A stretch of 50,417 bases of DNA from a virus (lineage: Duplodnaviria > Heunggongvirae > Uroviricota > Caudoviricetes): the IMG/VR virus record IMGVR_UViG_2700989535_000003; one strand, given 5' to 3'. Positions 3,883 through 48,778 of this stretch are shown here, piece by piece; the stretch's first letter is position 1; the number at the start of each line of letters is the position of its first letter. A program made the position numbers and the translations under genes. The notes under the pieces were generated by a model. That model was given only the letters and a program-made list of their open reading frames with translations, had not been told where the DNA came from and did no database searches.

Positions 3883-6800
3883 TATGCAAGCCTCACAATA
3901 TAGTTAAATGCGATGTTTTTGACGGTGTTTTCCGCGTTACCAGCAGCGTTAACGGTGATGGTGTGTCCATGTGAACCAATCGCAACGGAGTGCGTATGAG
4001 CACCAATACCCACAGTATGTGCGTGTGCACCTGCGCTTGCAGCAGTACCCGATACAGAGTGCGTATGAGCGCCTGCAGAAGAAGTGTTAACACTGTATTT
4101 AGAATAATCAGATGCTCCACTTCCCGGAGCACCACTGGAACCACCTGAAACAAATGTCATCGAATGGGTATGTGCACCGGCTGAAGCAGCCGTACCGCTA
4201 ACACTATGGGTATGCGCCCCGGTGTTATTCGTGGATTTAGTGCCGTAATCAAACGACGATGTGGTTTTCGTCCCCAAATCCGTACTGGATGCGCTGGCGC
4301 TGTGGGTATGCGATTTAATGCCGTCCTGTTCCTGAGACAATACGGCCCGACCACTGGCAGGTTTGCCCTTAATCGTCCAGCCACGCATATCAGGGATCAC
4401 GCCTGACGGATAAGCGGCTGCAAGTTTCGGGTAAGCAGATTTGTCAAAAGTCTGCCCCTGCATCAGGGCATAACCAGACGGAACGGTATCTGATGGCCAC
4501 GGGATTGGTGCGCCGACTGGGTAGCTTTCTGGTGGAAGATTTTTCGAGGTATAAACTTCTGCCCAGTCTTCCTCAAAACCATAACCGCCTCTTGAAGAAC
4601 GGTAGAACAGACCACCATTTCTGTAATGCGCCTTCATCTGCAAGGTCCGGCAACTTCCGACTCCGGTATAGAAGTTAACCAGAATATAGCTGTCGCCAGA
4701 GCGGGTGACATTGTAAGCACCTGATTCGGCATTCCAGGGAACGCCACCATCCGCATCGGCATATGTATCCGTTGCCCTTCTGGCAAAAGCAGCCACATGC
4801 GCGGCGGTTAAAGTAATATCTCTGGAACCATCAAACTCAACACCAGAAACCAGTCTTGGCGTTTGCAGCTTTGTTGCTGTTAATGCATTACCGTTCAGAC
4901 TTGCGGACAGTTTGGTTCCAATAACCAGTTCGCCGGTTGCGTTATCAATAGCAAACGGTCTTAATGTATTCCAGCTACCATAAACATCACCTTGATTGGT
5001 AAGCAGCAGGTAAGTTTTAGCGCCATCATTACGCCATAATGCACCATACTCCCCACCTATCATTCGAATCTGATTACCACCACGCGCTACAATTTCGTCT
5101 GTGGCAAAAAGTTTTTTGCACGACAAATTATCGTTAACGATTAACGAATGAGACTCATAAAAACCACGCCCACTCTTAAAATCAAGGATAACGTCCGCCG
5201 CGATACATTCAGTCGCTGGATTTGTTGCCCCAAACTTATAGGTCGTATCATTAACAACGAGATCAGCACCAGGTGCGGATATTGACAGGCCATCTTCGAT
5301 AAACGCAAAAACAGGGAAAGCAGCGCCATCAACATAGAACACAGAGCGCAAATCATCGCCCTTATTACTCATCATTATTGAGTGGATGGCTCGTTCATTG
5401 TTTTGATATTGCCAGAACATTCCATAAGCATAACGCCCCCTGTCAGTCCAGCCACCAGGCATAACAAATCCGTTAAACTCGCAGTTATTCATCGGATCGC
5501 CTGCGGTTCGCGGTGCCGTGGTGATAATGACCCTTGATGCCAGTTCGCTTACTGAGCCAGCAGAACGCATAACAACAACAGGGTAATATTTTCCAGATGT
5601 TGCACCTGCAGGAGCGTTAACCCGCACATAACGCATACCACGCTTATCAGCAAAGTCTGTTTTACTGACCGCGTTAATGTTGTTCAGGAAGCGTCCCTTA
5701 TCGGGTATATCAGCGCCGTTCTGGTCTTTCTGCAGACGTTTCTCTGCATTGTCATAGGCTGATTTTACTGCCTTTGGCGTTGCCGCCAGCGTTTCAGACG
5801 TACTGTTGGTCGCACTGCTGAGCTGTACTATCCCCTTTTTCGTCGTGCTCGCATCCTCAAGCGCCACGGCGGATGCAATATCCTCTGCCCGTTTTGCCGC
5901 TGTCTCGGCGCGCGTTGCCGCGGATTCCGCCGTACTTTTGCTCTGTGCTGCCGCCGTCGCACTGCCAGCTGCCTCTGTCGCCTTCGTGGATGCTGTCGTG
6001 GCGCTGCCCTTCGCTGCTGACGCCTGTCTGGTCGCCTCATCTTTTGAAGCAGACGCCGATGATGCCGATGACGCCGCCGAACTGGCTGACGATGCGGCAG
6101 CCGTTTTTGAGGATTCTGCGCTGGTTTCCGACGCTTTCGCGTTCGTTTCGGATGTCTTCGCTGCGGAAGCAGAACTCGCTGCTGCGCTGGCCTGTTCAGT
6201 GGCTTCGCCAGCCTTCGTTGTGGCTGTTGAAGCGGATGATGCGGCGCTTTCTGCCGATTTTCCGGCGGCGGTGGCACTGGCTGAGGCCTGCCCGGCACTT
6301 GTTGACGCGGCGCTGGCAGATGATGCAGCCGCTGTTTTTGAGCCTGCCGCAGCTGAGGCGCTCTGTCCCGCTGCCGTCTCAGAAGACTTAGCGTTCGTCT
6401 CGGACGTTTTTGCCGCCTTCGCGGAATTTCCTGCCGCCGTTGCCGAGGAAGTTGCGCTACTGGCGCTCGAGGATGCGTTCGTTTCTGATGATTTCGCTGC
6501 CTCTTTTGAGGCCGCCGCATCCCGGGCTGAGGTGGCAGCTTCTGACGCTTTCGTGGTCGCGGTGGATGCAGAAGTGGCTGCTGATTGTTGTGACGCTGCG
6601 GCATTCGTTTCTGACGTTTTCGCGGCACTGGCACTGGTAGCTGCCGCGCTTTTTGAGGACTCTGCAGCAGCAGCACTTTTCGATGCTTCACTGGCCTTTG
6701 TTGATGCCGTTCCTGCGCTGGAAGACGCTGACTGAGCCGACGACGCGGCCTGTCCGGCTGACGTGCTGGCTGCGCGTGCTGAGCCTGCAGCATCAGTCGC

Positions 6801-36490: not shown

Positions 36491-36646
36491 TTACTCCTCA
36501 GGTTCGTAAGCTGTGAAGACAGCGACCTCCGTCTGGCCGGTTCGGATTCGTACCTCGCAGAGGTCTTTCCTCGTTACCAGTGCCGTCACTATGACGGTTA
36601 AACAGATGACGATCAGGGCGATTAACATCGCCTTTTGCTGCTTCAT
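36491..36646 (-). CDS. hokD: Hok-family type I toxin HokD (RelF)
   Basis: Hand-translated 51 aa: MKQQKAMLIALIVICLTVIVTALVTRKDLCEVRIRTGQTEVAVFTAYEPEE; not in ORF track (below size cutoff). Confidence 0.85.
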   Translation of the reverse strand: MKQQKAMLIALIVICLTVIVTALVTRKDLCEVRIRTGQTEVAVFTAYEPEE

Positions 36647-36717
36647 AGCCTGCTTCTCCTGTCAACGCAAAGCAGAAGTGTCACCTTCGGTGCGAAACAG
36701 AGATGTCATGCTTTGGT

Positions 36718-37005
36718 TCAGAGAATGCGTTTGACCGCCTCGCTATATACTTCCGAGCGTTCTCTTTTCCCAACAGAAATCACGAAAACGACAACTTTCT
36801 CGTCTATAACCTGGTATACAAGGCGATAGCCTGAAGACCGGAGCTTAATCTTGTAACAATCAGGCATACCACGGAGCTTGTTTGCTTCAATCCGGGGTGA
36901 CTCAAGTACTTCAACCAGCTTCTTTTTCAACTGTTCACGTACCGTCGAGCCCAGCTTTCGCCATTCCTTTAGTGCCCGCTCGTCAAAATCCAGAAAATAC
37001 GCCAT
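36718..37005 (-). CDS. relE: Type II toxin RelE (mRNA interferase)
   Basis: 95 aa MAYFLDFDERALKEWRKLGSTVREQLKKKL...; start overlaps relB stop. Confidence 0.9.
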   Translation of the reverse strand: MAYFLDFDERALKEWRKLGSTVREQLKKKLVEVLESPRIEANKLRGMPDCYKIKLRSSGYRLVYQVIDEKVVVFVISVGKRERSEVYSEAVKRIL

Positions 37006-37244
37006 CAGAGTTCATCCAGCGTCACACGTACTGGCTTAGGATTACGAAGCCGTTCTTTCACTATCTCCACAAGTTCAGCATCTTCATCACTCAGGAGTGT
37101 CTGTTTGAACGGCAAGCGTTCATTGTCAGCGATATACTCGAGCATGAGACGAAGCGCTTCAGAAGGAGTTACACCCATTTTTTCAAGCGCGGCGTAAGAA
37201 CGCGCTTTAAGTTCATCGTCAATACGCAGGTTAATGCTACCCAT
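37005..37244 (-). CDS. relB: Type II antitoxin RelB
   Basis: 79 aa MGSINLRIDDELKARSYAALEKMGVTPSEALRLMLEYIADNERLPF... Confidence 0.9.
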   Translation of the reverse strand: MGSINLRIDDELKARSYAALEKMGVTPSEALRLMLEYIADNERLPFKQTLLSDEDAELVEIVKERLRNPKPVRVTLDEL

Positions 37245-37255
37245 GTCTTACACCT

Positions 37256-37281
37256 CTTGTAATTACAAATGTCATTACAAG
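37256..37281. promoter_or_regulatory. relBE operator/promoter palindrome (relO-like)
   Basis: CTTGTAAT-N10-ATTACAAG inverted repeat immediately upstream of relB start. Confidence 0.5.
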
Positions 37282-37574
37282 TATCGCACTACAACATGCT
37301 TAGGGCAAGTCACGAAGGAAGTCAGAAAGTAGTCGTAAGAACGGTGATCACTGTCCGCTTTGTGCCAGGAGCAGCCATTGCTAAGTCCATCCTGTATTGT
37401 GCAGGTCAGCTCATTTTTAAAGAGTCCGGCCATCATCTTACTGGTACAGACACCATATACTTTGTGACGGTCAGGCTACATATGCACAACTCAACTTATT
37501 CATCTATTTTTTGCTTTAGCATGTCAGTGTTGCTTTCTCGTCGGCGGGTGAGCGGTGACCTGACCTGTCGATAA
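37269..37574 (+). CDS. Hypothetical ORF (101 aa; YdfV-like by position)
   Basis: ORF between relB and flxA; overlaps relO; coding status doubtful. Confidence 0.25.
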   Translation: MSLQVSHYNMLRASHEGSQKVVVRTVITVRFVPGAAIAKSILYCAGQLIFKESGHHLTGTDTIYFVTVRLHMHNSTYSSIFCFSMSVLLSRRRVSGDLTCR

Positions 37575-37726
37575 AGGAACGTAGCACGTTTTATGCAACA
37601 CCCGCATGCGGCAGAAAATTATTGCCGAACGTTTACCCCTGTCAACAAGCTTTACTTTCTGAGGCGCGCCAGCCCGCTAGGAAAACAATCTGAACATCAA
37701 ACAATTAATGACACAAGAAATACGAT

Positions 37727-37753
37727 TAAAGATTTTTTTGTGCATGCCGATAG
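37727..37753 (+). promoter_or_regulatory. Sigma-28 (FliA) promoter of flxA
   Basis: TAAA-N15-GCCGATAG matches the FliA consensus TAAA-N15-GCCGATAA; 24 nt upstream of flxA ATG. Confidence 0.6.
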
Positions 37754-37776
37754 TGCTTTTTTAAAAGGAGAAATCT

Positions 37777-38109
37777 ATGTCTGTCACAATTCAGGGAAAT
37801 ACCTCAACCGTTATTTCAAACAACTCCGCCCCGGAAGGAACATCAGAAATAGCCAAAATCACAAGACAAATTCAGGTGCTGACTGAAAAGCTTGGGAAAA
37901 TCTCATCGGAAGAGGGGATGACGACACAGCAGAAAAAAGAAATGGCTGCATTGGTACAGAAGCAAATTGAAAGCCTCAGGGCTCAACTGGAGCAGTTGTT
38001 AAGGCAGCAGGCAGAGAAAAAGAATGAAGACGCGACAGTTCAGCCTGATAAAAAAGAAGAGAAAAAAGACGATACAAATACCGCTGGCACCATTGATATT
38101 TACGTCTAA
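37777..38109 (+). CDS. flxA: FlxA (FliA-regulated protein)
   Basis: 110 aa; AAGGAG SD; coiled-coil Q/E/K-rich sequence. Confidence 0.8.
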   Translation: MSVTIQGNTSTVISNNSAPEGTSEIAKITRQIQVLTEKLGKISSEEGMTTQQKKEMAALVQKQIESLRAQLEQLLRQQAEKKNEDATVQPDKKEEKKDDTNTAGTIDIYV

Positions 38110-38123
38110 GTGACAGCCGTATT

Positions 38124-38150
38124 GTGGCCCTCATCGGGCCACTTTTCGCC
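38124..38150 (+). terminator. Rho-independent terminator of flxA
   Basis: GTGGCCC-TCATC-GGGCCAC hairpin followed by TTTTCGCC. Confidence 0.55.
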
Positions 38151-38375
38151 ATCAGCCTTTTCTTTAAAGACATATTATCTTTGTATCATTTCTGATAGTT
38201 AACATTACAAGATATAAGTAATGGACGCACTCCCAATTAGTCTATTTAAATCGCCACGAGTTTAACTGACAACCCATGATCAATTATGAATTGCAACTAT
38301 TTCTGTAGTCACTTTTGTGGGGACAGTCCACAAAACTGCCAACTTCCGCTTCTTGCTCTTAGCGGACATTAGCAT

Positions 38376-39967
38376 AGGCTATTTACCATAACGCCTCATT
38401 ACGCGCACCGCCCAGACTGACTCAGCGCGTTTCTGGCATATCCCCAGTAAAACAAGTAACAAACCACCCGAAAATGAACACCAGAAACGCGACTTAAGAA
38501 TCTACCCTATGAATGGATATGCACTCAACCGAATCGATCTTGGTTTCAATCTTTTTTATCGGGATCAGGCTTCTTTTTAGGTAACTTCGGGGGCTTAACT
38601 TGCTGATGACTTTGCGTTCGGCGCGTAAGCCAGGGATGGTCAGCTTTAGGTTTAACATAGTATTTTGAGCGTAAATCAATACGGGCATTATCCACTCGTT
38701 CATGGACACTCTTTTCATCATCCAGTGGTATAGGCTCCGGGCCATCAACATACTTTTCCCAGCCCAGCGCTTTCCCGTCATACAGAACGTTAATTTCACC
38801 GTCAAAGTTCTCGCATACAGTAACAACCGAATGCCTAAGTCGATATCCCCGGCTCTCACTGCGTACCTGAAACGCACTGCTTTTGTACTGGAAAGTGAGA
38901 TTTTTAGACAGAACGCGCTTCGCCTGTAGGCTGAAGATATAACCCAGTTCCTCTTCAGAATGGTGCACATCAAGATGAGCATTATCAGTAGTACGAGGCG
39001 ACGTAGCGAACCGGTTGTTATAGGCTTCAATAAAGGTCGGCAACCATGCATTTGCTGTTTCAATATCACTGATATTCTGAAGCCGCATTTCTTTGACCAG
39101 CCTGTCCTGTAGTGTCTGATTGGCGCGCTCTACCCGCCCTTTTGCCTGCGGGCTGTTGGCATGGATTGGCTCGATGCCCAGTGTCTTTATCGCACGAGTG
39201 AACTGGGTCAGCTCACCTTCCCGCTCTGGGTTATTTACCCTGAATATACTGTGTCTATCAGAGTAGAGAGCGAGCGGTACGCCATGATCATTAAGGTAAC
39301 CCCGGAGGGTTTCCATGTAAGCCCGGGTTGTTTCAGCAGGCACAAAACGCAACGCCATCAACGCACTGGTGGCATCATCAATGAAAACGATCAGTGTACA
39401 TCTGGGGCCTCGATTTTCAAACCAGTCATGAGGTGAGCCATCAATCTGGATCAGTTCACCGTAAGATGGTCGTCGCATGCGGCGTTGATATATACGGGCA
39501 ATTTTACGACGGCGTTCACGCCATAACCCCTCTTCTATCATCCACTTTCTGAGAGTTTCAACGGATAAAGATAAACCGTGTATCTCGCGCAATTTTTCGC
39601 ACGCAAACGTAGGTCCAAAATCAGCGTAACGGCTTTTGAGGAGTGAAATTACTGTTGCTCTGAATTCAGTAGAAAAGGAATTATTAGGACGCTTTCCACG
39701 TCGGTGGGAAACCAGACCAGAAGGCCCTTCATTTCTATACCGTTGCACCAGACGTTTAACCTGCCGAATAGAAATGCCAATGCGTGCCGCAGCTTGTTCC
39801 TGAGTAATATGTCGATTAATTGACTCCTGAATAATCTGAAGTCGGTGGAGTTCCTTATGACTCATCGTAACAGTCTCTTTGATCATGAAAAATCCCCCAG
39901 AGAATTGTCTGGGGACATTTTAGAATGGTTCAAAGGGGACATTACAGCTTGGTGTTAACAAATAGCC
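38376..39967. mobile_element. Candidate insertion sequence (about 1.6 kb) with imperfect terminal inverted repeats
   Basis: Left AGGCTATTTACCATAACGCC (38376..38395) vs reverse complement of right end GGTGTTAACAAATAGCCT (39950..39967): 9 identical outer bases then about 6/8; encloses the DDE transposase. Boundaries approximate; no target-site duplication verified. Confidence 0.4.
38546..39886 (-). CDS. DDE transposase (N-terminal HTH + rve/integrase-core domain; IS481/ISNCY-like, family unresolved)
   Basis: 446 aa; HTH (ITQEQAAARIGISIRQVKRLVQRY) and integrase-core region with D..D..E-type spacing (QIDGSPHDWF..., LYSDRHSIF..., KGRVERANQTLQD). Confidence 0.75.
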   Translation of the reverse strand: MIKETVTMSHKELHRLQIIQESINRHITQEQAAARIGISIRQVKRLVQRYRNEGPSGLVSHRRGKRPNNSFSTEFRATVISLLKSRYADFGPTFACEKLREIHGLSLSVETLRKWMIEEGLWRERRRKIARIYQRRMRRPSYGELIQIDGSPHDWFENRGPRCTLIVFIDDATSALMALRFVPAETTRAYMETLRGYLNDHGVPLALYSDRHSIFRVNNPEREGELTQFTRAIKTLGIEPIHANSPQAKGRVERANQTLQDRLVKEMRLQNISDIETANAWLPTFIEAYNNRFATSPRTTDNAHLDVHHSEEELGYIFSLQAKRVLSKNLTFQYKSSAFQVRSESRGYRLRHSVVTVCENFDGEINVLYDGKALGWEKYVDGPEPIPLDDEKSVHERVDNARIDLRSKYYVKPKADHPWLTRRTQSHQQVKPPKLPKKKPDPDKKD

Positions 39968-40145
39968 TGCTTCTCCTTGCCTTTCGGCACGTAAGAGGCT
40001 AACCTACATGTGTCTAGCATGAAATTGGCCTCAGATTAATGTTAAGCGTCTTGCAGGACGCGTAATGTTAACTGGGGCTTTTCTCTATCTGCCGTTGGTG
40101 TTCATGCCCGAGGCAGATAGCCTCAAGCACCCGCAGCAATTTTAC

Positions 40146-40253
40146 TTAACTCCCTCTACCTCGCCAATCAGAAAATCGCTCCATGAAAGCAACAACAAGA
40201 CAATAAATTACCAGCACAGCCACAATAGCCAACACACACGTCAGAGCCAACAC
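40146..40253 (-). CDS. Small hydrophobic peptide (35 aa, single predicted TM); candidate membrane toxin/effector
   Basis: GTG start 5 nt after a perfect AGGAGG SD; translation (M)LALTCVLAIVAVLVIYCLVVAFMERFSDWRGRGS; about 170 nt downstream of the SIR2-like gene, same strand; palindrome GTATTGG-N6-CCAATAC just upstream of the SD. Confidence 0.35.
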   Translation of the reverse strand: MLALTCVLAIVAVLVIYCLVVAFMERFSDWRGRGS

Positions 40254-40423
40254 GATAACCTCCTGTATTGGACGTATACCAATACTGATAAATATGAGAC
40301 TGCCTCTTCAATGATTCAATACAACTATTGGGTGTTCATCTAAAGAATGAAATGAAGGTAAAGTGTATATTTCAGCTCAGCGAAGTTAGAACCGTATACT
40401 CTCGATACTAACTTCGCATTGTG

Positions 40424-41455
40424 CTACCAATTGATGAAGTCAGTGATGTTATCCAACATGGTTACAGTAACTTCCCGTCCTAACAAATATTGCCAGTATG
40501 CCTCACGGTCATTTTGTTCACCTGCACCGCTCCACTCAATTACTCTTAAATGCTTAGAGGTTAGGTAAGGCCGAATAAGCAGGTTAAGGTGTTCATCGAG
40601 GCCAGAATAACCAAACAGTATTATTTCTTCTGATTCAAATAATGCAAACTGCAAATAATCCCAGTACGTAGAAAGAACATTAGATGCTGCTATAACTGAC
40701 GGTTTCCTTTTTATATGCGTTAACACTATATGTTCGCTAGGCTCATCCCTGTCAACCGTAAGTTGAGAACGTGAAAGTTTTAAGACGGTCTCACCCTGAT
40801 TAACAAATAGTGGTGAGCCATGCAAATGCAAATAATAACCAAACCTACGATTATATTTCCGTTCGAGCGCTTCGGCGGAAAATCCGTGGCCTAACATCCC
40901 ATCAACCAGATACCCATCATACCCGCTGAATATATCATTATCTATGAATGAGTTGTATAATAATTTGTCATAGTTTAATGTCGCAATATGAGTGCGTGTA
41001 TTTTTTACAAATTCCACTAGCGCATTTTCGAATCTTTGCGGCAACCCTTCACCGTAATTATGCAAACTAGTTGCAACTTTGTGGATATAAGTGGCGGTGA
41101 TTTCGGGGAAGTTTAGTCCATCGTCAGTAAGCCAATGCTCGTTTCCTTCTCCAATTTGCGCAAGAGCCTTACAATATGTGATAGCTTGGTGAAGGGTATC
41201 CAACTCATGTTCCCCTGCCGGTGGACCTTGCCGCTGAAGACAACGTTCGATAAGTTGCTTATGGACATCGTTTAAGAAATTGGATCGATGCCAAATTTCT
41301 GCCAACGCCCTGTCTAAGGAAAAATGAGCAGGATCTAAAGCCATACCAAGACCGTTGCCGAATATTATTAATTTTCGTGCCATATAGGAGGACTCATGTT
41401 GGAATAATCTTGAGTAGCGTAACGCGATACGCCGCAGTTTGGAAGTAATATACAT
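40424..41455 (-). CDS. SIR2-like (SIR2_2-type) protein, candidate NAD+-consuming defence effector
   Basis: 343 aa; motifs IIFGNGLGMALDP (Gly loop), IATLNYDKLLY (TTNYD-like), YLHLHGSPLF (His motif), ILFGYSGLDEH; AT-rich context. Start may be the internal ATG at 41383. Confidence 0.55.
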   Translation of the reverse strand: MYITSKLRRIALRYSRLFQHESSYMARKLIIFGNGLGMALDPAHFSLDRALAEIWHRSNFLNDVHKQLIERCLQRQGPPAGEHELDTLHQAITYCKALAQIGEGNEHWLTDDGLNFPEITATYIHKVATSLHNYGEGLPQRFENALVEFVKNTRTHIATLNYDKLLYNSFIDNDIFSGYDGYLVDGMLGHGFSAEALERKYNRRFGYYLHLHGSPLFVNQGETVLKLSRSQLTVDRDEPSEHIVLTHIKRKPSVIAASNVLSTYWDYLQFALFESEEIILFGYSGLDEHLNLLIRPYLTSKHLRVIEWSGAGEQNDREAYWQYLLGREVTVTMLDNITDFINW

Positions 41456-41799
41456 TCCGTTTGATTACACTCGATATTACAGACTTGCATGCAAAGAAAT
41501 CCAAGCTGTTAGGTAAATAGAGACCGCAGAGGAAAGTGATATAGTCTATAAAAACCAACGAATAGCGGCATGTCTTCTGCGACCTCCATTTACCCAAATA
41601 GCGCTTATCTAGTAAAATTCAATGATGTATTGCATAGTATTTCGTATGAATTGATATAGATAAGAATCAGTCTTAATTCATTAGCAAATATTGAAACTCA
41701 AAATGTCTGTTTTTGATACAAAGCTGACAACCAGACCAGTTCTAGCCATGTGCCATCAAAATGTCAATTCATATCTGAAGTAATGCTCTTTAATTTCGT

Positions 41800-46214: not shown

Positions 46215-46306
46215 AACAGTTCCGTAATAAACATCCGATTTCATTCTTATATGCCAGCAATGGCAGGGATTTGTTCACCCTTAAATCTGTAATGAGGTAA
46301 AACAAA

Positions 46307-48778
46307 ATGAGTAAAGTCTTTATTTGCGCCGCCATTCCGGACGAACAGGCAATAAAGGAAGAAGGTGCCGTCGCTGTAGCCACTGCCATTGAAGCCGGTG
46401 ATGAACGTCGCGCCCGCGCAAAATTTCACTGGCAATTCCTGGAACATTATCCGGCTGCTCAGGACTGCGCTTATAAATTTCTTGTTTGCGAGGATAAACC
46501 CGGTATACCCCGCCCTGCCCTCGATTCCTGGGATGCTGAATATATGCAGGAAAACCGCTGGGATGAGGCGTCTGCTTCCTTTGTCCCGGTCGAGACTGAA
46601 TCCGATCCGATGAACGTCACTTTTGACAACCTAGCCCCTGAAGTACAGAACGCTGTCATGGTTAAGTTCGACACATGTGAAAACATCACTGTTGATATGG
46701 TGATTAGCGCACAGGAATTGTTGCAGGAAGACATGGCAACATTCGACGGCCATATCGTTGAAGCGTTGATGAAAATGCCAGAAGTTAACGCTATGTATCC
46801 GGAGCTTAAGCTGCATGCCATCGGGTGGGTTAAGCATAAATGTAAGCCTGGTGCCAAATGGCCCGAAATTCAGGCAGAGATGCGCATCTGGAAAAAACGT
46901 CGCGAAGGTGAACGCAAGGAAGCCGGAAAATACACGTCTGTTGTTGATCTCGCCCGCGCCAGAGCCAATCAACAGCACACTGAAAATTCAACAGGAAAAA
47001 TCAACCCGGTCATTGCTGCCATTCATCGCGAATACAAGCAGACATGGAAAACACTGGATGACGAACTGGCCTACGCTCTCTGGCCTGGTGATGTGGATGC
47101 CGGAAACATTGACGGCAGCATCCATCGCTGGGCAAAAAATGAAGTTATCGACAACGACCGCGAAGACTGGAAGCGTATCTCGGCATCAATGCGCAAACAG
47201 CCTGATGCCCTTCGCTACGACCGCCAGACTATTTTTGGCCTTGTCCGTGAACGTCCGATCGACATTCACAAAGACCCTGTGGCACTGAACAAATACATTA
47301 CTGAATACCTGACTACAAAGGGCGTGTTTGAAGATGAAGGAACAAATCAGAGCGCAACTGATACTCTCTCGTCGCCAGTACCAGAAACTGATGCAGTGGA
47401 AACGGCAATTCCAGACAACGAAAAAACCGAATGCAAAGTGGAAGTCGAACCATCTGTAGAACGTGAGGGGCCGTTCTACTTCCTCTTCACCGACAAGGAT
47501 GGCGAAAAATACGGTCGCGCAAATAAACTTTCTGGTCTGGATAAGGCGCTGTCTGCTGGGGCTACTGAAATCACGAAAGAAGAATATTTCGCCCGCAAAA
47601 ACGGTACATACTCAGGTTCACAACAAAATACTGGTGCATCTGACACGACCGCACAACCAGGGTCAGTAAAAGTTACCGCTGACGAAGTAAACAAAATTAT
47701 GCAGGCAGCCAATATCAGCCAGCCTGACGCCGATGAACTGCTTGCAGTATCACGTGGTGAATTTGTTGAAGGGATTAGCGACCCGAATGATCCGAAATGG
47801 ATTAAGGGGATCCAGACCCGCGATTCTGTGAACCAGAACCAGCAAGAAACGGAACAGAACGACCAGAAAGCGGAACAAAACAGCCCAAATACGCAACAAA
47901 ACGAGCCAGAAACGAAACAACCTGAACCAGTAGTGCAACAGGAACCGGAAAAGATCTGCACCGCCTGCGGTCAGAGCGGTGGCGGCAACTGCCCTGATTG
48001 TGGTGCGGTGATGGGTGACGCAACATACCAGGAAATATTCGATGGAGAGAATCAGCCTGAAGTTCAGGAAAATGATCCGGAGGAAATGGAAGGCACTGCG
48101 CATCAGCACAAGGAGAACACTGGCGGCAATCAGCATCATGCCAGCGATAGTGAAACTGGCGAGGCGTCAGATCCCTTAATTAAGGCAAACGGTCATCATA
48201 ATCTCACATCCACCAGCAGAGCGGGGATTCATCTGATGATCGACCTTGAAACCATGGGAAAAAATCCCGATGCCCCGATTATCTCAATAGGTGCAATATT
48301 TTTCGATCCGCAAACCGGAGATATGGGACCGGAATTTAGTAAGACTATCGATCTGGAAACTGCTGGCGGAGTCATTGATCGGGACACCATTAAATGGTGG
48401 CTTAAACAATCACGCGAAGCGCAATCTGCCATTATGACCGATGAAATCCCGTTAGATGATGCACTGTTACAATTGCGGGAATTTATCGACGAAAACTCCG
48501 GTGAATTTTTTGTTCATGTCTGGGGAAATGGAGCCAACTTCGACAACACGATTTTGCGCCGTTCATACGAACGGCAGGGGATCCCCTGCCCGTGGCGTTA
48601 CTACAACGATCGCGATGTACGCACAATCGTTGAGCTGGGGAAAGCCATAGACTTCGATGCCAGAACGGCTATTCCATTCGAAGGTGAGCGCCATAATGCA
48701 CTTGATGACGCCCGTTACCAGGCAAAATACGTTTCAGCTATCTGGCAAAAACTGATCCCGAGTCAGGCTGATTCTTAA
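46307..48778 (+). CDS. YdfE-like large early protein with C-terminal DEDDh-type 3'-5' exonuclease domain
   Basis: 823 aa; C-terminal LMIDLETMG...HVWGNGANFDNTIL...HNALDDARYQAKY (Exo I/II/III-like motifs); central Q/E/N-rich linker and CxxC-N8-CxxC zinc ribbon; occupies the exo position of the lambdoid map. Confidence 0.65.
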   Translation: MSKVFICAAIPDEQAIKEEGAVAVATAIEAGDERRARAKFHWQFLEHYPAAQDCAYKFLVCEDKPGIPRPALDSWDAEYMQENRWDEASASFVPVETESDPMNVTFDNLAPEVQNAVMVKFDTCENITVDMVISAQELLQEDMATFDGHIVEALMKMPEVNAMYPELKLHAIGWVKHKCKPGAKWPEIQAEMRIWKKRREGERKEAGKYTSVVDLARARANQQHTENSTGKINPVIAAIHREYKQTWKTLDDELAYALWPGDVDAGNIDGSIHRWAKNEVIDNDREDWKRISASMRKQPDALRYDRQTIFGLVRERPIDIHKDPVALNKYITEYLTTKGVFEDEGTNQSATDTLSSPVPETDAVETAIPDNEKTECKVEVEPSVEREGPFYFLFTDKDGEKYGRANKLSGLDKALSAGATEITKEEYFARKNGTYSGSQQNTGASDTTAQPGSVKVTADEVNKIMQAANISQPDADELLAVSRGEFVEGISDPNDPKWIKGIQTRDSVNQNQQETEQNDQKAEQNSPNTQQNEPETKQPEPVVQQEPEKICTACGQSGGGNCPDCGAVMGDATYQEIFDGENQPEVQENDPEEMEGTAHQHKENTGGNQHHASDSETGEASDPLIKANGHHNLTSTSRAGIHLMIDLETMGKNPDAPIISIGAIFFDPQTGDMGPEFSKTIDLETAGGVIDRDTIKWWLKQSREAQSAIMTDEIPLDDALLQLREFIDENSGEFFVHVWGNGANFDNTILRRSYERQGIPCPWRYYNDRDVRTIVELGKAIDFDARTAIPFEGERHNALDDARYQAKYVSAIWQKLIPSQADS

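Follow-up and report, generated by a model that had tools for sequence, protein, structure and literature searches.

Among the immune effectors of bacteria, NADases with a SIR2 domain form a major class. The SIR2-type effectors found in Thoeris, DSR1/2, SIR2-HerA and SPARSA were reportedly described by Ofir 2021, Garb 2022 and Zaremba 2022, and Garb et al. 2022 are said to have presented DSR1 and DSR2 as single-protein SIR2 defences. To our knowledge, the characterised SIR2 NADases are either large multi-domain proteins or depend on a partner (HerA, ThsB or pAgo). Here we describe a short SIR2-family gene in a stretch of viral DNA of 50,417 nucleotides (nt), the IMG/VR record IMGVR_UViG_2700989535_000003, hereafter called the window. 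The window is collinear with a complete Qin-like lambdoid prophage that sits in ydfJ of Escherichia coli KSC1031. The gene product is a single-domain protein of 319 amino acids (aa) whose nearest solved folds are the SIR2 subunits of SIR2-HerA, and we lean towards reading it as a defence protein that works on its own. Two described systems are of particular interest for comparison. A protein termed ‘sole-Sir2’, of about 440 aa with an N-terminal extra region and a resemblance to the SIR2 domain of DSR2, converts NAD+ to ADP-ribose (ADPR), and a homologue of it protected against T2 and T4 (bioRxiv 10.1101/2024.12.27.630466). In E. coli, the DUF4917/SIR2_2 protein PD-T7-2A belongs to a validated defence system, PD-T7-2, in which a HerA-like ATPase gene is required as well (Vassallo et al. 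2022).

The SIR2 locus lies between the replication genes (O-like and DUF977/Ren-like) and Q, which is where a first inspection of the letters alone, the sequence-only reading, had placed it. Its features are as follows.

40424..41383, minus strand: SIR2-family gene, 319 aa, the likely true coding sequence (CDS), with glycine loop, ATLNYD, HLHGSP and FGYSG.D.HLN
41384..41455, minus strand: in-frame upstream extension of 24 codons (343-aa form), probably 5' untranslated region (UTR)
41456..41799, minus strand: AT-rich non-coding stretch from the DUF977/Ren-like gene to the SIR2 gene, GC content about 0.40-0.43
40380..40417, minus strand: stem-loop 6 nt past the SIR2 stop codon, from the sequence and its RNA fold

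The sequence-only reading had taken a 343-aa open reading frame (ORF) at 40424..41455 on the minus strand for a defence-type SIR2 protein because of the motifs IIFGNGLGMALDP, ATLNYD, LHLHGS and ILFGYSGLDEH. All of these motifs are present, and the assignment is supported by a profile score, by the predicted fold and by the invariance of catalytic-type residues. In the profile search which that reading had suggested, the window protein scored 26.5-26.7 bits against Pfam SIR2_2 (PF13289), a small margin over the gathering cut-off of 24.5, and all 40 aligned relatives (55-82% identity to the window protein) matched SIR2_2. The exact sequence is found as WP_057696359.1, and a near-identical 319-aa protein of related strains (WP_001533280) is named ‘SIR2 family protein’ in RefSeq. 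The AlphaFold2 (AF2) model, with a predicted local distance difference test (pLDDT) of 90.3 and a predicted template modelling score (pTM) of 0.88, shows a Rossmann-type SIR2 fold. The SIR2 core starts at residue 4 and occupies all 319 aa as a single domain, with a helical insertion of ~110 residues (aa ~20-130). Foldseek against the PDB gave as best matches the SIR2 chains of E. coli SIR2-HerA (E 1.4e-10, template modelling score about 0.6), and further matches to CobB and SIRT2 (E 4e-5 to 1e-3). When the PDB chains were searched by sequence, with the protein and with the family profile, nothing meaningful was found, and only the fold comparison tied the protein to solved SIR2s.

In the numbering of the 319-aa form, the motifs are GNGLGM (aa 9-14), ATLNYD (N137, D139), HLHGSP (H186, H188) and FGYSG.D.HLN. 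Across the 40-sequence alignment M14, N137, D139, H186, H188 and G258 are invariant, G9, N10, G11, G13 and S260 are kept in at least 90% of the relatives, and FGYSG.D.HLN is largely kept. N137 and H186/H188 are candidate catalytic-type residues, equated with those of ThsA and DSR2 by motif position and not by residue-level superposition. A canonical deacylating sirtuin of the CobB/Sir2 kind was considered and rejected. The canonical Sir2 family PF02146 gave no match at E<=1, and the sequence holds no CxxC pairs and thus lacks the Cys4 zinc-binding module of deacylating sirtuins. The family itself is compact. A set of 5.8 billion proteins yielded 642 clusters at 90% identity, and a set of 1.84e9 representative proteins yielded 306 at 50% identity; almost all members of the latter are 310-365 aa long and match end to end.

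The true start is very probably M25 of the 343-aa form (ATG at 41383), which yields the 319 aa of the RefSeq annotation. Homologues in Serratia, Klebsiella, Aeromonas, Vibrio and Chromobacterium begin at the equivalent of M25 (MARK/MDRK), and Shine-Dalgarno (SD) sequences stand ahead of these starts in Klebsiella (AGAGG), Aeromonas (AAGGAG) and Serratia (GGGAG). The upstream frame is closed by stops in Serratia and Klebsiella, and in Vibrio the gap from attC to the start is only 28 nt. Given these homologue starts, SDs, closed frames and the Vibrio spacing, the 343-aa start was dropped. Several enterobacterial homologues (71-90% identity) nevertheless keep the 24-codon extension open and share an LRYPxLFQ motif within it; possible explanations are a conserved element, either 5' UTR or regulatory, and an alternative, longer isoform.

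Compared with SIR2-HerA (Nezha; PDB 8sub, 8uae, 8j4u, 8w9l, 8yhx), the window protein shares the fold at only 14-18% identity, with no match at the sequence level. The SIR2 subunit of SIR2-HerA measures about 340-430 aa against 319 aa here, and the HerA gene that is adjacent there is found neither beside the window gene nor in the other contexts examined. With DSR1, DSR2 and ‘sole-Sir2’ the likeness lies in the architecture, a single gene that has no conserved partner and whose SIR2 domain is presumed to be the NADase effector. Those proteins, however, range from ~440 to >1000 aa and have a separate non-SIR2 sensor region, which the window protein lacks, and DSR2 is not the nearest fold, the HerA-associated type being nearer. 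Unlike ThsA of Thoeris, the window protein lacks a SLOG or Macro signal-binding domain, and its gene has no ThsB/TIR gene nearby. The second gene required in PD-T7-2 is likewise missing next to the window gene, and the PADLOC models of PD-T7-2 gave no match.

The comparison with PADLOC defence models, also suggested in the sequence-only reading, came out in part: models were matched, only weakly. For the window protein the hits were Aga_SIR2 (7e-7, the best), the SIR2 of SIR2-HerA (7e-6) and the candidate PDC-S21 (1e-5), and the models named ‘SIR2’ were matched weakly by 26 of the 40 members (window 7e-6, family best 4e-8). PDC-S21 and Aga_SIR2 are the best-scoring defence hidden Markov models, matched by 31/40 and 40/40 members, respectively, but at E of only 1e-5 to 7e-9, so that the window protein does not belong to the same family; no Argonaute or APAZ gene lies nearby, and PDC-S21 is itself no more than a PADLOC candidate. 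Among viral collections, a tblastn search of 50,697 phage records found nothing that matched the SIR2 protein, PHROGs gave no family for it, and Foldseek against the BFVD viral structures found no match.

Judged by its genomic neighbourhoods, the SIR2 gene is autonomous, a single gene with no conserved partner. In Vibrio parahaemolyticus a homologue of 73% identity forms a single-gene cassette within a chromosomal integron array (L019 4382-9977), bounded by attC repeats of ~122 nt at 4851-4973 and 5971-6092 of that locus; the adjoining cassettes carry CcdAB and a Mrr-type (Mrr_cat) nuclease. In Serratia plymuthica (L006) a PDC-M36A-like ATPase gene lies directly upstream and a SoFic-type Fic protein is encoded a few genes downstream, so the surroundings look like a small defence island. 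The gene is accompanied by a LysR regulator and an AAA_28 gene in Klebsiella, comes straight after sucD in Aeromonas, and has a Bro-N gene nearby in Chromobacterium. Relatives of 40-100% identity are also held by 21 viral (prophage) contigs of several phage types in IMG/VR. Over all these contexts, taken from at least five bacterial genera and from several phage types, no recurrent partner was found, neither HerA, TIR, Argonaute nor any other. The Serratia ATPase was considered as a partner and rejected, for it accompanies SIR2 only in Serratia; this protein (L006 3812-5854) has 680 aa, a Walker-A/AAA_16 N-terminal region and a C-terminal PDC-M36A match (6e-21). Two Vibrio relatives, P0061 (541 aa) and P0065 (506 aa), have the SIR2 core preceded by a fused N-terminal domain of ~190-220 aa. 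One extension is a homologue of the other (30% identity, E 8e-12), and neither gave a Pfam match; in these ORFs as called, the extension may be a sensor domain.

The place of the gene within the prophage is informative as well. In lambdoid phages and prophages the slot has the order Ren-like DUF977 gene (phrog_142), cargo, small ORF and hok. In phage mEp460 the cargo is PD-T7-1 (PADLOC E 4e-157), and elsewhere it is a dCTP-deaminase defence gene (7.9e-169), PDC-S39 (8e-103), a DUF262/NsnA-like gene, a pAgo-associated-nuclease-like gene, an nSTAND1 NTPase, QueH with a methyltransferase, or a pair of weakly HEPN/RES-like and GNAT-like genes. The loci compared include L005 3246-4595, L015 2927-5207 and the IMG/VR loci L154, L150, L156, L110 and L044. 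By the identity of its occupants, the slot is a defence hotspot which exchanges validated anti-phage genes, and the SIR2 gene occupies the same position. The anti-phage candidacy proposed for the gene from the sequence alone is therefore upheld by the SIR2 evidence together with a slot that holds validated defence genes in sister phages. Since validated defence genes stand there beside cargo that matches no model, the slot is a practical place to seek new systems. Several slot proteins of 250-480 aa gave no PADLOC match and could be new defence candidates.

Upstream and downstream sequences were inspected for signals of expression. GC content is 40-43% across the SIR2 gene against 45-52% in the flanks; the locus is thus lower in GC than its surroundings, as the sequence-only reading had held, although only modestly AT-rich. 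The stretch 41456..41799, in which no ORF had a family match, is presumed to be the seat of a SIR2 promoter active in the lysogen. The stem-loop at 40380..40417 is composed of GCGAAGTTAG, an 18-nt loop and CTAACTTCGC, has no U-tract, and folds as RNA with -22.1 kcal/mol (z = -2.3 against shuffles). No intrinsic terminator was called there by the scan, and the structure may mark the 3' end of the SIR2 transcript or may stabilise the transcript. Because the Vibrio homologue is an integron cassette, we considered the stem-loop as a relic attC. The idea was rejected, since the arms (GTTAG...CTAAC) run in the opposite order to those of R''/R' core sites and the junction in E. albertii is not convincingly placed at G|TT.

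On the established ground of family membership, fold, conserved residues, gene autonomy and hotspot context, we propose that the gene is a single-gene cargo whose self-contained 319-aa SIR2 enzyme acts as a one-protein, NAD+-depleting abortive-infection defence. We give this proposal somewhat better than even chances. Expression in the lysogen, NADase chemistry, trigger and protective phenotype are what we infer for the protein; the NADase abortive-infection role appears most likely by analogy with Thoeris, DSR1/2, SIR2-HerA, SPARSA and ‘sole-Sir2’. In such a scheme a promoter of the gene itself would drive expression in the lysogen, where the protein would be kept inactive. An infecting phage would activate it, directly or via a changed oligomeric state, the active protein would hydrolyse NAD+ at the Asn137 / His186/His188 site, and the loss of NAD+ would leave an infected cell that no longer supports phage replication. 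A lone integron cassette without an antitoxin implies that the protein is presumably not constitutively toxic, and hence auto-inhibited; candidate regulatory elements would be the ~110-residue helical insertion and a possible oligomeric switch. What appears to be new here is that a SIR2 of the HerA-associated structural type occurs in minimal form and without a partner; a defence activity for it is plausible but unproven.

Several results weigh against such a defence role. The closest solved relatives require HerA for activation and none is present here, and no obvious sensor domain is found within the 319 aa. The best PADLOC E among the 40 members is 7e-9 (PDC-S21, pAgo-associated SIR2), and distant relatives score equally weakly. 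A consensus scan of 41456..41799 found no minus-strand promoter at >=9/12 matches. Klebsiella and Aeromonas, two of the five non-prophage chromosomal contexts, show no defence neighbours. In the literature, including the Vassallo, Rousset, DefensePredictor and integron-defence papers, we found no paper which tests this SIR2 family. Moreover, 27 of the 40 relatives weakly match DUF4917 (PF16263; best 7e-8), the family of SliP and PD-T7-2A, while the window protein itself does not at E<=1, and SliP, the DUF4917 protein of C. jejuni, is reported as a secreted, sirtuin-like deacetylase (PMC10421069).

A bolder version of the defence proposal, which we offer tentatively and would not bet on, holds that this offshoot of the SIR2-HerA type does without HerA and is the smallest SIR2 immune protein to act autonomously, with the helical insertion as sensor, a self-assembly switch and single-gene spread. 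If the 319-aa protein works alone, it would be a minimal and structurally tractable unit for sensing infection and destroying NAD+. Its movement as a single gene across an integron array, chromosomal sites and prophages of several Gammaproteobacteria shows how a compact immune gene spreads. If the gene does not defend, it would be an ordinary accessory enzyme of unassigned role.

The alternative that fares best, though we consider it improbable, is an enzyme that modifies proteins (a deacylase or ADP-ribosyltransferase) and serves to convert the lysogen or manipulate the host, a role of the kind claimed for SliP. The DUF4917 matches and the reported activity of SliP fit such an enzyme, as do the fold likeness to CobB and SIRT2 and the chromosomal copies without defence neighbours; the missing PF02146 match and zinc module do not, and the placement in a prophage defence slot and an integron array is typical of defence cargo. 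The solved relatives activated by HerA and the lack of a recognisable sensor domain would also suit one half of a split system, inert alone, whose partner (a HerA-like ATPase or a signal-producing enzyme) is encoded elsewhere in the genome. We judge this to be quite unlikely, because no gene recurs beside SIR2 across the genera and phage types, the spread as a single-gene cassette or prophage cargo argues for function after lone transfer, and the Vibrio fusions suggest regulation within one polypeptide. Less probable still is an enzyme that serves the prophage against the host or other elements, for instance an anti-defence factor that destroys NAD-derived immune signals. SIR2-fold enzymes do act on NAD-derived nucleotides, and the gene lies in the direction of the early-right operon and would thus be transcribed in lytic growth too; against this stand the absence of matches among the phage records and the BFVD structures, the homologues at non-phage chromosomal sites and in an integron, and the slot itself, in which those occupants that have been characterised are defence genes.

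The last alternative joins the SIR2 protein to its hydrophobic neighbour on the hok side. The features of this side are as follows.

40146..40253, minus strand: small membrane-protein ORF (35 aa here) outside the SIR2 unit, with ORF, SD and GTG start
39961..40167, minus strand: hok promoter and hok mRNA leader (mok start, antisense sok region), outside the SIR2 unit
36661..39961, minus strand: IS1202/ISNCY-type transposon-like block with transposase, flxA, ydfV and relBE
38546..39886, minus strand: ISNCY/IS1202-like transposase ORF (NCBIfam ISNCY 2e-140)
36491..36646: hokD CDS

The sequence-only reading had paired the SIR2 gene with the 35-aa ORF as a two-gene module, and its description of the ORF was accurate. 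The ORF has a GTG start and, 5 nt upstream, a perfect AGGAGG (40259-40264), and it lies 170 nt past the SIR2 stop on the same strand. The pair is also adjacent in an E. coli allele of 89% identity and in E. albertii. However, the peptide adjoins SIR2 only in Escherichia lambdoid prophages, where other cargoes have it too: the same ORF stands beside PD-T7-1, the dCTP deaminase, PDC-S39, nSTAND1, QueH and others, more than 10 unrelated cargo types altogether. Of 5426 complete E. coli genomes, 1904 have the peptide region and only 46 the SIR2 locus. Downstream of SIR2 no SD-preceded hydrophobic small ORF was found in Serratia, Klebsiella, Aeromonas, Vibrio or Chromobacterium, nor in 8 viral contigs of non-Escherichia type (L036-L043); L006 and L036 have weakly hydrophobic ORFs there that are unlike the peptide and have no SD. 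In addition, the Vibrio SIR2 is a one-gene cassette, the stem-loop and a possible separate promoter lie between both genes, and the 35-aa form arose from a 29-aa ORF by a local deletion. A two-gene anti-phage module of SIR2 and membrane peptide, such as an NADase with a membrane effector or anchor, therefore fails, as the peptide ORF is not conserved at the homologous SIR2 loci (five chromosomal or integron contexts and eight viral contigs), and we retain next to no credence in it.

By these comparisons the 35-aa peptide is not a partner of the single-gene SIR2 defence that we favour but the product of a separate small membrane-protein gene of the hok-side flank of the slot. The region was compared with strain S30 and phages HannyBb, mEp460 and 933W. 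In other strains and phages the ORF has 29 aa, with a conserved range of 29-34 aa and a single transmembrane segment. In the window and close relatives a deletion of 11 nt removes the TGA stop, so that the ORF reaches 35 aa and runs into the hok promoter, which its last 22 nt overlap. A promoter of its own is possible, with TTGAAT (40319-40314), 17 nt and CATATT (40296-40291). Two lineages can be distinguished at about 64-70% nucleotide identity: in lineage A the peptide reads MLVLKCALAI.AVMAIYCL..VLMD.LSD*, and in lineage B it reads MSDDISLAMEGALAV.AVVGVYCLVVFLMDRLGN*, with an ATG start and AAAGGAGGG as SD. The ratio of non-synonymous to synonymous substitution rates (dN/dS) across the lineages is 0.22-0.30, the remaining two frames hold stops, and an open ORF with SD and start is kept in all loci compared. 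Homology to the ORF region was found at 49 of the 116 IMG/VR loci that share this hok leader, and the ORF is open at 46 of those 49. Because of the dN/dS values, the stops in the other frames and the open state in 46 of 49, the conserved ORF is probably a genuine small membrane-protein gene. It was never seen in PGAP/RefSeq annotation, and GenBank submitters sporadically label it ‘membrane protein’ or ‘hypothetical’ (e.g. in the E. coli B strain REL606, which has the 29-aa form, by exact-sequence look-up). As a secondary reading, this 29-34-aa ORF, unannotated in RefSeq, may be an expressed small protein that marks the border of the lambdoid hotspot in about one third of E. coli genomes.

Next to this ORF, 39961..40132 on the minus strand holds a full-length hok/sok leader (Rfam RF01794, 109.5 bits against a gathering cut-off of 59, E 1.7e-25), which the sequence-only reading had overlooked. 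The hok promoter is TTGGCG-17-TAAAAT at 40167..40139. The leader is 96% identical to the sokW/mokW/hokW start region of phage 933W and resembles hok/sok loci in having a promoter and a mok start, but differs from them in that it is not joined to a hok CDS. The leader and hokD adjoin without a break in strain S30 and in phages, whereas here the two are parted by an insertion of 3301 nt. On either side of this block (36661..39961), which includes the transposase that the sequence-only reading had correctly noticed next to the locus, lies a perfect 16-nt direct repeat, ATAGCCTGCTTCTCCT (36645-36660 and 39962-39977), from the hok SD/start region. The ends of the block form imperfect terminal inverted repeats with 21/30 matches, a value reached by 0 of 5000 shuffles. 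The point of insertion is the translation-initiation region of hokD, and the site is empty in strain S30 and several IMG/VR prophages. From this structure, relBE-flxA appear to be passengers of an IS1202-type element whose insertion divided the hokD locus. Such an event would explain the lack of a leader at K-12 relF/hokD and would account for the orphan sok/mok leader adjoining the SIR2 gene. That relBE integration truncates the hokD locus is noted in a passage of PMC6379469, which cites Ramisetty and Santhosh 2016. At 39962..40024 on the minus strand the mok frame is cut to a 21-codon ORF (MLDTCRLASYVPKGKEKQAIC*) that runs into the end of the insertion sequence (IS). The intact sok antisense region has no hok target in cis and constitutes an orphan antitoxin RNA locus. 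A further mobile element, an IS3 element at 46241..47403, lies in the early-left region between the dicB/DUF1482 genes and the exonuclease gene, according to the KSC1031 annotation.

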